17,651 nucleotides of DNA. Source: Candidatus Spyradenecus sp. (GTDB lineage Bacteria > Verrucomicrobiota > Verrucomicrobiia > Opitutales > UBA953). Location of the stretch: assembly GCA_045535075.1 (NCBI GenBank), contig JAZSKX010000003.1, forward strand, positions 1 to 17,651, read 5' to 3'. Under the pieces are notes generated by a model. It worked only from the letters and a program-made list of their open reading frames with translations. It did no database searches and had not been told where the DNA came from. A program made the translations under genes and the position numbers. Below, in pieces: positions 3,455-7,026 of the stretch (the first letter of the stretch is position 1; each line of letters starts with the position of its first letter).

Positions 3455-3477
3455 CGTTCCCGCGGGAACGCTTTTTT
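3455..3477 (+). terminator. Probable intrinsic terminator after infB-mtaB, made of two overlapping copies of the GTTCCCGC motif
   Basis: Perfect 16-bp palindrome CGTTCCCGCGGGAACG (3455-3470) followed by C and TTTTTT, about 80 nt after the mtaB stop. Confidence 0.6.
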
Positions 3478-3567
3478 GAGTAAATGGAATCGGAATTTTA
3501 CCGACGGGCAGCGAAAGAACATGCTTCACTGCCATTTCAAAATAAGTCAGTATTAGGTGTTTTATTT

Positions 3568-5142
3568 ATGAAAAAAGTTCTTATTCCGACTAAATTGGAT
3601 ACTGTTGCAGCCAAAACGCTTGCTGCCGCCGGATACACCGTTGTTCAGGACGCGGAAACGCCGATTGACGCTCAAGTCGCGACCAACGCCGACACCGTCG
3701 TTCTCATTGTTCGTTCCGAAAAGGTCACGCCCGCGATTATCGACGCGTTGCCGAAACTCAAAATCGTTATCCGCGCCGGTGCCGGATTTGACAACATCGA
3801 CATTGCTTACGCGCGAAAGAAAAATATCGACGTGATGAATACGCCGGGCGCGAACGCCAACGGCGTTGCCGAAGAAGTCGTCGCCATGATTCTCGCCTGT
3901 TTCCGCCATCTCGTTCCCGCAGACAACACGACGCGCGCCGGACTTTGGGAAAAGAAAAAATACATGGGCCGTGAGCTGACGAAAAAAACCGTCGGCATCG
4001 TCGGGCTCGGGAACATCGGTCGATTACTTGCCAAACGCTTGCAGGGCTTTGAGCCGAATCTCATCGGCTACGACCACTTTCTCGCCAAGCAACGCGCCAT
4101 TAATATCGGCGTAACGCCCGTACCGCTCGAACAAATTTTTGAAGAAGCCGACATCATTTCGCTTCACGTTCCCGGCGGAGCTTCGACGCAAAATCTCGTC
4201 AACGCCGAATTGCTCGGGAAAATGAAAGACGGCGCCATGCTTGTAAACTGTTCCCGCTACGGCGTTGTTGACGAAGCGGCGCTCGCCGAAGTTCGCGCTT
4301 CCGGCAAGAAAATTATTTACGCGACGGATGTTCACCCGAAAGATGCGGCCGGCGACAAACCGTCCGCCGCGGTTGCGGATTTAATTCTCCCGCACCTTGG
4401 AGCCAGTACGAAAGAGGCGAATTTCAACGCAGCGAAGCGTGCCGCGGAAGAGGCGATTGCGTATTTTGATAACGGAGACACCTCCTGCGTCGTCAACGCC
4501 GAAGTTCCGCTCGGGCTTGATCCGATGCAACTTCGCCTTGCGAAAATGCTGGCGACGCTCGCCCGTCTCGTCGGCGGGAACAAGGCGATTCGCCGTGCCG
4601 ACTGCACGTTTTCGGGCAGCCTGCGTTCTTTCCGCAAATGGTTTACACCGAAATTGCTCGAAGGTTTGTTGCCGCATGCAGAAAAAGGGTTGCCGCCGCC
4701 GATGGCAGACGTTTCGATCCGCGAGCACGGAATCGTTTATCAGGCGAAGGAGCCGCTCATCGGCAACGTCGAAGAAGATTCCATCGTTCTTGAAGTCATG
4801 ACGGAAGCGGCGGAAGGCAAGCATGAAACCGTCTGCGTTCGCGGGATTGTCGCGGAGAATACTCCGATTATTTCGTCGGTTAACGGCTTTAAAGGGCTGT
4901 ACTTTGACTTGCGCGGAAATCTCCTTTTTGTGCGCTACGCAGACCGGCCGGGCGTGCTTGCGCGCATTACTTCCGTACTCGGAGACGCCGAGATTAACAT
5001 TGAAAACATCACGGCTCCGATTGATCACGAAGCCGGAGAAACACTTGCCGTCATCAAGACGAACAAACCTGTTACGCCGGCTCAGGTTTCTGCCGTCGCA
5101 ACGCTCGTTAATGCGATTTCGGCATTTTCCGTTTCGTTCTAA
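3568..5142 (+). CDS. serA: D-3-phosphoglycerate dehydrogenase, long form with C-terminal ACT domain
   Basis: RAGAGFDNID, NTPGANA, Rossmann motif GIVGLGNIG, PHLGAST.EA, ACT motif YADRPG...INIE. ATG 3568 follows the SD-like AGGTG at 3555-3559. Confidence 0.88.
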   Translation: MKKVLIPTKLDTVAAKTLAAAGYTVVQDAETPIDAQVATNADTVVLIVRSEKVTPAIIDALPKLKIVIRAGAGFDNIDIAYARKKNIDVMNTPGANANGVAEEVVAMILACFRHLVPADNTTRAGLWEKKKYMGRELTKKTVGIVGLGNIGRLLAKRLQGFEPNLIGYDHFLAKQRAINIGVTPVPLEQIFEEADIISLHVPGGASTQNLVNAELLGKMKDGAMLVNCSRYGVVDEAALAEVRASGKKIIYATDVHPKDAAGDKPSAAVADLILPHLGASTKEANFNAAKRAAEEAIAYFDNGDTSCVVNAEVPLGLDPMQLRLAKMLATLARLVGGNKAIRRADCTFSGSLRSFRKWFTPKLLEGLLPHAEKGLPPPMADVSIREHGIVYQAKEPLIGNVEEDSIVLEVMTEAAEGKHETVCVRGIVAENTPIISSVNGFKGLYFDLRGNLLFVRYADRPGVLARITSVLGDAEINIENITAPIDHEAGETLAVIKTNKPVTPAQVSAVATLVNAISAFSVSF

Positions 5143-5164
5143 TTGAACGGATAGCGGAATTCAT

Positions 5165-5206
5165 AAAGCTGCGGGAACGACCTTGGCTTCGTTCCCGCAG
5201 TTTTTT
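5165..5206. terminator. Intrinsic terminator between convergent serA and ABC exporter; stem is an inverted pair of the GTTCCCGC motif
   Basis: CTGCGGGAACGA (5169-5180), loop CCTTGGCT, TCGTTCCCGCAG (5189-5200): a perfect 12-bp stem. It is followed by T6 and preceded by AAAG, so it may be bidirectional. Confidence 0.85.
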
Positions 5207-5226
5207 GTAAAATTATCCGATCCGGC

Positions 5227-7026
5227 TCAAACGCCCTGGCGATTATAAAGCTCTTTGTAAAGCGGGCAGGAGGCGTAAAGCTCGTCGTGGGAGCCGTCGC
5301 CGACGATACGGCCCTGAGAAAAAACGAGGATGCGTTGTGCGATGCGAATCGACGAGAAGCGGTGGGCAACGATAAATGTCGTCCGCCCGCGGACGAGTTC
5401 TTCAAGTTTGTCTTGGATTTTCTTTTCGCTTTCGGAATCAAGTGCCGCCGTCGCTTCATCGAGAATCAGAATCGGAGCGTCTTTTAAAAATGCCCGTGCA
5501 ATTGCCAGGCGCTGACGCTGACCGCCGGAAACGCCGCTCCCGACATCGCCCAGCATTTTATCCAAGCCTCCGCTATTCAACACAAAATCTTCCGCCGCTG
5601 CATTGCGCGCCGCACACTCGACGGCGGCGTCGGAAGCATCCCGGTTTCCGAGGCGAATATTTTCCCGAATGGTGTCACGGAATAGAACGGCATGTTGCGA
5701 AACCAAGGCGATAAAGCGGCGAAGCGTTTTCTTTTTCAAACGGCGAATATCGATTCCGTCGACGAGGATCGAGCCGGCGCTTGCTTCGTAAAAACGCAAA
5801 ATCAGACTTGCGAACGTTGTTTTTCCCGCGCCGCTGGGCCCGACGAGCGCGACGATTTGCCCGGCGGGAACGCGCACGTTGATATCGCTCAACACCTTAC
5901 GCCCGTTTTCATAGGCGAAATCGACGTTGCGAAACTCAATCGTTCCCGCGATCCGTTCCGGCTCAAGCGGCTTGTCCGGCTCGGGCATCGTGTCGGGTTC
6001 CGTCAGAATTTCCTCCAAGCGTTCAAGCGATGCCTGGGCTTGGCTGAATTTATTAAAGGAAACGCCCGTGCGTTTAATCGCATCCGCCGCGAAAAAGAGC
6101 GCTCCGGCGATTGCCATAAAATCCGTCAAAGCCATACCGAGCATTCGCCCGCGAACGAGAACGAACGCAAGCGCAAGTGCGGTTAAAAACTCCAGAGTCG
6201 GAGTCAGCAGCTGCTGGTATTTTACGGTTTTGAGCTGAGCCCGACAGAAGCGATTGGACGCGCGAGCCATGCGCGCCACCTGAGTTTCCTCCATCGCGTA
6301 CGAACGAATTTCGCGCTGTGCGGCAAGATTTTCCTGAACGACCGCCGTCATCTCGCCGATATTTTTTTGAGCTCCGCGAGCTTTGCGGACAACACGCCTT
6401 CCGAAGACAATAATCGGCGCAACGGCGATCACGGCAAAGACTGCGCTCGCGGCAAACATTGATGCTTCGGCCTTGTCGCTCAAGACATAGACAAGCGCGA
6501 CAATCGCACTGACGGCAGTGAGCGGCTGTTTCACGATATCGCTCGAAACCTGCGTGATCATATTTTGGACATTCTGCGCGTCCGTAACGATGCGGCTCAA
6601 AAGATCTCCGCGCATTTGTTTTTCGTGAAATGCGAGCGGTAGAGTTTGCAGGTGCGAGAAAACGCCGACACGAAGATTTTCGAGAACGCGCATCCCGAAA
6701 TAATTTACCGCCATCGCATTTACCCACATCGCCAAACCGCGTATGACGAAAACAATCGGCATTGCCGCGCAAGCGGTAAAAAGAACGGCGAAACCGAGGT
6801 TTTCCGGGCTAACGTACCGCGAAATAAAATCCAAGATCGGGCGCGGCATCGTGGAGGGGTCGAAAACGGCAGGGAAAACCTTGTAAATCAGCACGGGAAT
6901 GCCGAATCCGCTTGCCGCTGCGGCAATGAGTCCGGAAATCAGCGCTAACGCCAAATACCCTTTAACCGGCCAAATGTAGCCGGCATAATGCGCGATACGG
7001 GATACGATTTTTTTTAACTTTTTCAT
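5227..7026 (-). CDS. ABC exporter, fused TMD-NBD (MsbA/ABCB family), copy 2
   Basis: N-terminal TM helices, Walker A GPSGAGKT, Q-loop VSQ, signature VSGGQRQR, Walker B ILILDEAT, H-loop AHR. Its start overlaps the upstream paralog's stop (ATGA, 7023-7026). Confidence 0.92.
   Translation of the reverse strand: MKKLKKIVSRIAHYAGYIWPVKGYLALALISGLIAAAASGFGIPVLIYKVFPAVFDPSTMPRPILDFISRYVSPENLGFAVLFTACAAMPIVFVIRGLAMWVNAMAVNYFGMRVLENLRVGVFSHLQTLPLAFHEKQMRGDLLSRIVTDAQNVQNMITQVSSDIVKQPLTAVSAIVALVYVLSDKAEASMFAASAVFAVIAVAPIIVFGRRVVRKARGAQKNIGEMTAVVQENLAAQREIRSYAMEETQVARMARASNRFCRAQLKTVKYQQLLTPTLEFLTALALAFVLVRGRMLGMALTDFMAIAGALFFAADAIKRTGVSFNKFSQAQASLERLEEILTEPDTMPEPDKPLEPERIAGTIEFRNVDFAYENGRKVLSDINVRVPAGQIVALVGPSGAGKTTFASLILRFYEASAGSILVDGIDIRRLKKKTLRRFIALVSQHAVLFRDTIRENIRLGNRDASDAAVECAARNAAAEDFVLNSGGLDKMLGDVGSGVSGGQRQRLAIARAFLKDAPILILDEATAALDSESEKKIQDKLEELVRGRTTFIVAHRFSSIRIAQRILVFSQGRIVGDGSHDELYASCPLYKELYNRQGV

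Follow-up and report, generated by a model that had tools for sequence, protein, structure and literature searches.

In the accessible text of two studies (bioRxiv 10.1101/2025.10.24.684340; PMC1852404), uptake sequences are treated as a trait of two proteobacterial families. The sections of Kingsford et al. (PMC1852404) on which we draw report that about 55% of terminators in Neisseria hold the uptake word DUS, and that DUS pairs are enriched tail-to-tail, have tails that match gene direction and show one dominant arm order. For the USS of the Pasteurellaceae the same sections give a share of 17-29% of terminators, and the same picture of uptake-word terminators is drawn in the cited portions of PMC2397512 and bioRxiv 10.1101/2025.10.24.684340. 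A sequence-only reading of the locus described here had noted that inverted DUS/USS pairs commonly serve as intrinsic terminators in Neisseria and Haemophilus. HIP1 of the cyanobacteria is an 8-nt palindrome, genic, lineage-specific and of unsettled origin, and we know of no use of it as terminator material.

Here we describe an 8-nt word, CGGGAACG, that resembles the DUS of the Neisseriaceae (GCCGTCTGAA; PMC1852404, in the parts cited) in its thousands of copies on both strands, both intergenic and genic with a frame bias. Further points of likeness to that word, as far as its description was accessible, are taxon specificity, depletion in foreign DNA, tail-to-tail pairing and the dominance of one arm order, and the share of terminators that bear the word is 39-49% here compared with about 55% in Neisseria. 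On the other hand, it is another word in another phylum, the Verrucomicrobiota, its 8-nt core is denser (one per 378 bp), and its extended form has no A/T flank that could account for the arm-order bias. Neisseria has the receptor ComP; no word-specific receptor was found here, nor was ComEA. With the USS of the Pasteurellaceae (AAGTGCGGT; PMC1852404, in the parts cited) it shares its genome-wide behaviour and the terminator pairs, but in the USS the extended motif is long and AT-rich and the arm-order bias is weaker, while the bias here is 152:1 and there is no AT extension. Compared with HIP1, the word is of similar density, but it is asymmetric and used as inverted pairs.

The window, by which we mean the whole 17,651-nt stretch of DNA analysed, corresponds to contig C4 of a genome of 1,949,087 bp in 18 contigs with 52% G+C. 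On its plus strand, a gene for a serA-type D-3-phosphoglycerate dehydrogenase occupies positions 3484-5142 (552 aa, TAA at 5140-5142), its domains being those of the SerA type (2-Hacid_dh_C, 6.6e-44; 2-Hacid_dh, 9.1e-26; ACT, 9.9e-10). Convergent to it, an ABC exporter gene lies at 5227-7026 on the minus strand (599 aa; ABC_tran, 1.1e-31; ABC_membrane, 3.8e-26), with its stop 26 nt from a hairpin that sits centrally in the 84-nt spacer, 26 nt from the gene on either side. Read on the plus strand, the hairpin begins with an AAAG tract (5165-5168) that pairs with the T tract in the fold, followed by the 5' arm CTGCGGGAACGA (5169-5180; core word at 5172-5179), the 8-nt loop CCTTGGCT (5181-5188), the 3' arm TCGTTCCCGCAG (5189-5200; core as reverse complement at 5190-5197) and a T6 tract (5201-5206) that forms the U tract of the serA transcript. 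The sequence-only reading had placed such a hairpin between convergent serA and ABC exporter genes, and its arms, loop, T6 and neighbours are all as it quoted them.

The 12-bp stem is perfect and G+C-rich, and extends to 16 bp with the A/U extension; a repeat search delimits the arms as 5162-5180 and 5189-5207 (19 nt, 89% complementary, gap of 8 nt). The 84-nt spacer folds at -37.2 kcal/mol on the plus strand (z -5.8), a value equalled or bettered by none of 200 shuffles, and at -32.1 kcal/mol (z -4.9) on the minus strand, where the transcript has only CUUUAU from the AAAG side after the stem, a weak tail. The distance from the serA stop to the start of the stem is 24-26 nt, compared with a median of 22 nt (IQR 18-32) among 153 terminators built from the word. 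The hairpin thus has the features of a Rho-independent terminator, namely a stable G+C-rich stem-loop with an adjoining T tract shortly 3' of a stop codon. It is like canonical terminators in its G+C-rich stem, short loop, U tract and placement 20-30 nt past the stop, and departs from them only in that both arms are copies of the commonest word of the genome. From these features we consider it highly probable that the hairpin is the Rho-independent terminator of serA. The nascent serA RNA would fold into the 12-bp stem and 8-nt loop with U6 directly after it, and polymerase would be released about 60-65 nt past the serA stop; for the ABC exporter operon on the opposite strand, the same element would be a weak terminator at best.

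A simple consensus terminator scan does not have the 5165-5206 hairpin on its list, presumably because the extension of the stem into the A/T tails consumed the T run; with 46 terminator-like sites in total compared with 36.5 in shuffles, that scan is uninformative. A second scan of our own, which looks for a hairpin and a T run, recovers the serA hairpin with a 14-bp stem, the 8-nt loop and the tail TTTTGTAA, and finds no further terminator-like hairpin for serA or for the ABC exporter gene. Assembled metatranscriptome contigs (runs X19 and X20) cover serA up to 5079 and the ABC exporter gene over 5748-6660, and none spans 5114-5415. The window holds a second hairpin made of the word, on the plus strand at 3455-3477, in which the pair occupies 3455-3470 as CGTTCCCGCGGGAACG followed by CTTTTTT, in the usual arm order and with zero gap. 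It lies 81 nt past a radical-SAM/UPF0004 (MiaB/RimO-like) gene and 13 nt before serA. In the DNA contigs of runs X1 and X2, the bases directly 3' of this second hairpin (3471-3473) are variable.

The arm of the serA hairpin is far from rare in its surroundings. Allowing at most two mismatches, the 12-mer arm occurs 37 times in the window (5 times exactly) compared with 2.8 expected and with 8 in the largest of 200 shuffles. Genome-wide, CGGGAACG is the commonest 8-mer, with 5159 copies (2527 forward and 2632 reverse), where simple arithmetic for a random 8-mer at equal base use gives about 60, and the 10-mer GCGGGAACGC has 1614 copies compared with 8 for a control with its letters reversed. 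A maximal-order Markov expectation was discarded as a yardstick of abundance, since the sub-words of the word are enriched too and render it useless. Density is about 2.0-3.2 per kb on 15 of the 18 contigs and 0-1.5 per kb on three short ones (3.1-3.7 kb). The flanks favour C or T at -2, G (63%) or A at -1 and C (46%) at +1, so that the extended word reads Y-G-CGGGAACG-C (YGCGGGAACGC); coding copies show neither A/T tails nor an extended AT motif. In a literature search for the word itself, nothing relevant was found among the matches listed, subscription journals being outside its scope.

All counts relative to genes rest on a map from our own crude ORF caller (1525 genes, 89.6% coding). By this map, 4372 of the 5159 copies (85%) lie inside genes at 2.51 per kb, and 787 are intergenic at 3.82 per kb. 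All six frames contain coding copies (2625 sense, 1750 antisense), with a bias towards the frame xCG-GGA-ACG (Ala/Thr-Gly-Thr; 1511 copies) and, in antisense, towards the Val-Pro-Ala type (1201 copies). Their spacing along the genome is near random (CV 1.10; median 262 compared with 258.5 for an exponential distribution). The leading strand as defined by GC skew holds 54.7% of word copies and 58.2% of gene bases, so that there is no polarity of the Chi/KOPS type, and a polar word of that type was rejected for want of a strong leading-strand bias. A promoter or transcription-factor site was rejected as well, there being no positional peak by start codons. Unpaired copies are similarly frequent in divergent, tandem and convergent spacers (2.2-3.2 per kb).

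Inverted pairs of the word are distributed very differently from a shuffled arrangement. We call the order CGTTCCCG...CGGGAACG RF and the reverse order, which is that of the serA hairpin, FR, with cores 0-20 nt apart. The genome contains 171 RF and 27 FR pairs at such gaps, along with 43 and 56 direct pairs. The RF pairs fall into tandem (82), convergent (61) and divergent (1) spacers, with 25 in genes and 2 elsewhere; counted by spacer, such pairs are present in 56 of the 200 convergent spacers, in 79 of the 939 tandem ones and in just 1 of the 196 divergent ones. Intergenic RF pairs number 144, compared with 40.3 when orientations are shuffled (no shuffle of 500 reaches 144) and 15.8 under random placement. 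A T run borders 129 of the 146 non-coding RF pairs, in 70 cases on both sides, and the tails match the direction of the upstream gene: out of 8 positions, tandem plus-strand spacers have 6.35 T downstream compared with 3.86 A upstream, tandem minus-strand spacers show 3.90 versus 5.72, and convergent spacers 5.85 versus 5.75. The sequence-only reading had proposed that inverted pairs be counted relative to stop codons, and this count finds them strongly enriched past stops with T tails on the correct side, so that its concern that pairs might not gather there (144 intergenic RF pairs versus 40.3 shuffled) is dispelled.

Counted gene by gene, a 3' end is defined for 1516 genes; 994 of them leave 25 nt or more of room, and in 396 of those a hairpin and a T run follow. 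The exact word stands in both arms of 153 of these predicted terminators; 19 others combine an exact with a one-mismatch copy, in 21 a single exact copy is the sole occurrence, 34 contain one-mismatch copies alone and 169 contain neither. Hence 193 of 396 bear one exact copy or more, and the share of predicted terminators with the word is 39-49%. The commonest core-to-core gap is 12 nt (53 successive pairs), and the loop sequences differ. Inverted pairs of the word would thus be standard terminator material in this genome.

That the same stem is common to many intergenic hairpins would also be expected if the hairpin were a copy of a mobile REP/MITE-like palindromic element, the other concern raised by the sequence-only reading, but several observations speak against this. 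The great majority of copies are genic (4372 of 5159) and their spacing is random-like, loops vary in length and sequence, the flanks are merely runs of A and T, and no Rfam family matches either hairpin of the window (5165-5206 and 3455-3477). Furthermore, the serA-ABC spacer has no second copy in its own genome and none in the 18 other genomes of the genus. With no longer conserved intergenic unit seen, the element reading is contradicted and, in our estimate, exceedingly improbable.

The serA hairpin itself stands apart in its arm order. Among the 153 exact terminators of this kind, 152 are RF and a single one is FR, namely the serA hairpin. Of the 27 FR pairs, 20 lie in genes, and a T run is found only at the serA hairpin; intergenic FR pairs are under-represented, with 7 compared with 39.9 expected. 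A/T flanks were rejected as the source of the arm-order bias, the extended word having no A/T tails, and so was an asymmetry of C and G between arms, as the 5' arms of 117 hairpins that lack the motif contain 386 C and 376 G. The sequence-only reading had taken the serA hairpin as the strongest single feature tying the word to the DUS/USS class. The tie holds up through the pairs found genome-wide, but the hairpin does not serve as its strongest witness, being of the minority order (1 of 153); since it stands in an under-represented order, the argument for the class stands on the other pairs, including the one at 3455-3470. The serA hairpin is a true member of the class of terminators made from the word, yet its least typical one, and it illustrates that a terminator can form in the 'wrong' arm order and persist within a species.

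The unusual order raises the question of whether two copies of a common word simply came to lie side by side at this locus without terminating transcription, serA ending elsewhere or through Rho. Random placement predicts about 16 intergenic pairs of FR order within 20 nt, and FR order is otherwise unused in terminators, both of which would suit such a coincidence. However, the arms match over 12 nt, 4 nt past the 8-nt core, T6 adjoins the stem directly, and the stem is kept among strains, which places the pair beyond chance; moreover, the other 26 FR pairs are all without a T run, the distance from the stop is typical of terminators built from the word, and there is no alternative hairpin for either gene. 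We thus regard a chance juxtaposition as improbable, and a terminator of serA as the preferred reading of the hairpin.

The evidence from strains comes from public sequencing runs. Across 11 studies of gut or faecal samples from sheep, goats and other animals, 20 runs contain the stretch. A DNA contig from run X2 has an identical hairpin with T8. The contig from run X1 has 57 differences over 4.5 kb and keeps the arms except for 5169 C>T (G·U in RNA), followed by T7, while its loop differs at 7 of 8 positions and reads AGCCAACG, which matches the reverse complement of the loop in the window in all but one base. In these two other strains the stem is thus retained, whereas the loop can flip and the T run has only lengthened, in contrast to what coincidence would lead one to expect; a stem that stays the same while its loop inverts is consistent with selection on structure. 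The flip in X1 amounts to a small inversion, an event to be expected where inverted repeats are perfect.

Beyond the species, the junction is not conserved. In the 18 other genomes of the genus, only the 3' end of serA (in G001, G002 and G013, at 82-84% identity) or the 3' end of the ABC exporter gene is matched, on different contigs; serA and the ABC gene are hence not neighbours in these relatives and the junction is species-specific. Downstream of serA, the motif-rich loci L005, L011, L051 and L059 have RF hairpins and T runs of their own, L006 and L007 have degenerate hairpins of the motif, and the loci closest by SerA (L001, L002 and L008) have a hairpin without the word. In L010 and L012, serA is followed by an FR-order pair with a gap of 22 and no T run and then by an apparent tRNA gene; in L013 it is followed by a single copy of the word without a T run, again ahead of an apparent tRNA gene. 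These last three layouts indicate that the neighbourhood of serA varies among species of the genus.

Inside serA, the word is held in place. We aligned serA by codons across 13 motif-rich species, leaving aside L010 (frame offset), three low-density relatives and the Akkermansia loci. Among 1525 ungapped 8-nt windows, just 7 show no difference between the 13 species, and all 7 overlap two sites of the motif; of 15 windows common to at least 12 species, 10 overlap the same two sites. Invariant third codon positions number 35 of 513. The word in serA is conserved even at synonymous sites, which is a constraint at the level of DNA.

DNA of foreign character, by comparison, is poor in the word. 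The longest stretches free of the motif reach 5.4 kb, and 74 proteins were scanned there. They contain two Mu-like prophages with Mu Gam, Mu portal, Mu gp27 and terminase (C16:183-221 kb, loci L090 and L091, and C8:20-32 kb, locus L094, of this genome, G000), where AAA/TniB-like proteins are also present. Other such stretches contain a cytosine methylase with an NgoBV-type endonuclease, a TIR/PD-(D/E)XK island, and a low-G+C gene for a 1609-aa DEAD/UvrD helicase. The restriction-modification island (C12:44.6-48.9 kb of G000; L093) is 40% G+C, has one copy of the word in 4.3 kb, and encodes a C-5 cytosine methylase, the NgoBV-type restriction endonuclease (2.2e-119) and an AAA_15/AAA_21 ATPase. 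The two prophages have word densities of 0.53 and 0.27 per kb and the restriction-modification island one of 0.23 per kb, 5-10 times below the 2.65 per kb of the genome as a whole. Poor in the word as they are, the prophages still exceed chance by a wide margin (20 copies over 37.6 kb). An ADP-ribosyltransferase domain (6.5e-8) was recognised in a prophage protein encoded at L091:3562-5022.

The range of the word has a sharp taxonomic edge. All 19 genomes of the genus have the 10-mer in great excess, with 138-3301 copies in the other 18 compared with 8-35 for the reversed control, while sister genera (6 genomes from 4 genera, 6-24 copies) and other families of the order (16 genomes from 16 families) show it at the level of the control. 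At loci around serA from 13 relatives (G+C 47-68%), the core occurs at 2.5-4.5 per kb, compared with 0-0.5 per kb at serA loci of Akkermansia, whose SerA is about 60-68% identical to that of the window, and of other Verrucomicrobiota and Lentisphaerota, with L077 (0.92 per kb) as the sole exception. An 8-mer frequent in L027 was dismissed as another such word, being merely a local 12-bp tandem repeat. A process acting on DNA itself would keep the genus-specific word at thousands of copies.

Within the genus, four genomes (G001, G002, G013 and G014) have 138-341 copies of the 10-mer, five- to ten-fold fewer than the others. G001 and G013, sampled over 79 and 100 kb, contain the core at 0.70 and 0.57 per kb, respectively, and there it is still the first or second commonest 8-mer; these samples contain no new dialect of the word. 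The ratio of one-mismatch to exact copies is 4-5:1 in G001 and G013, compared with about 1:1 in G003 and 1.25:1 in the present genome. In a syntenic block of 5.1 kb (L112 compared with L117-L119), there are 9 sites here and 2-4 in three low-density relatives, all of them among those 9. This pattern fits decay of the word in one sublineage, with gain in the present genome as the alternative in a comparison confined to these four genomes.

Parts of a competence type are encoded in the genome, namely ComEC, DprA, three T2SSE ATPases and a 984-aa secretin that has TPR repeats, together with seven pilin-like genes. Four of these pilin-like genes form one operon on the minus strand (G000 C1:259.1-262.4 kb; L112:1104-4398), located between ruvX and a pseudouridine synthase gene and encoding proteins of 345, 246, 249 and 228 aa with the N_methyl motif; these pilins are candidates for a DNA-binding minor pilin. 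A canonical ComEA was not found, the only HHH_3/TIGR00426 match being a 787-aa Tex protein. All 41 genomes of the family have ComEC and a secretin, genera free of the motif included, so that the two genes have no discriminating value; competence genes were accordingly ruled out as discriminators of motif-rich genomes. Loss of the pilin operon was likewise discarded as a cause of low word density, as in a comparison of its four genes the frames are open, at 79% identity, in low-density G001, G002 and G013, leaving the operon intact in three relatives with five-fold fewer copies. In the open literature, subscription journals being outside the scope of the search, natural competence or uptake sequences are not reported for Verrucomicrobia in the text accessible to us, and on the genus ('Spyradosoma') the accessible text of the same open sources holds nothing past taxonomy and surveys.

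The word behaves as a DUS/USS in every computable respect, and uptake itself is a candidate role. Its most likely driver would be preferential uptake and recombination of word-bearing DNA, of the DUS/USS type, with its use in terminators secondary; taken by itself, uptake as the driver is, from our analysis, a proposition at roughly even odds. The terminator could instead be real while the abundance of the word stems from a system unrelated to uptake, based on sequence-specific binding, modification or repair, that would mark self DNA or bias mismatch correction, with terminators reusing an abundant G+C-rich word. Such marking or correction systems have been discussed for highly iterated palindromes of cyanobacteria. 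The failure to find ComEA, the equal presence of competence genes in motif-free sister genera and the pilin operon without gene loss in low-density relatives are all in keeping with a driver of this kind, and any lineage-specific drive on DNA would yield all the features of distribution seen. Nonetheless, the word has no strand polarity and no positional peak at promoters, and uptake bias is the only process known to us that combines terminator pairs and an arm-order bias with an approximately 200-fold excess of a non-palindromic 10-mer. Terminator pairs and the arm-order bias are both documented for DUS/USS in the cited sections of PMC1852404. We hence consider a driver other than uptake rather unlikely. 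To the full explanation, in which the terminator of serA is made from a pair of copies of a word driven by uptake and recombination, with terminators a secondary use, we assign a probability of about 0.6. A more far-reaching proposal is that the word is a natural-transformation signal of an uncultured Verrucomicrobiota genus of the animal gut, independent of those of the Neisseriaceae and Pasteurellaceae, outside the Proteobacteria and working without canonical ComEA; we put this forward tentatively, at slightly less than even odds.

It is debated whether uptake words originate by molecular drive or by selection, and a third unrelated case would be an independent replicate. The genus offers a clean one-genus boundary, a G+C range of 47-68% in sampled loci and a sublineage in apparent decay. 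If the word is a true uptake signal, the low-copy sublineage, in which the drive has apparently been switched off, would provide a natural on/off comparison for a receptor search, and the word would be relevant to gene exchange in the ruminant gut.

Roughly half of the terminators of the genus are predicted by the word, which would also flag mislabelled metagenome bins. Loci L006, L010 and L012 combine a SerA 78-79% identical to that of the window with 3.4-3.7 copies of the word per kb; their records bear the titles Enterobacteriaceae, Sphaerochaetaceae and Bacteroidaceae, and L001 and L008 are titled with a genus placed in the Lentisphaerota by NCBI; these five are probably mislabelled bins. 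In a Lentisphaeria record of about 7.5 kb (L063), several 10-mers occur 15 times each and the 8-mer AAGTTTGA 24 times, and these repeats are probably an array, CRISPR or tandem.
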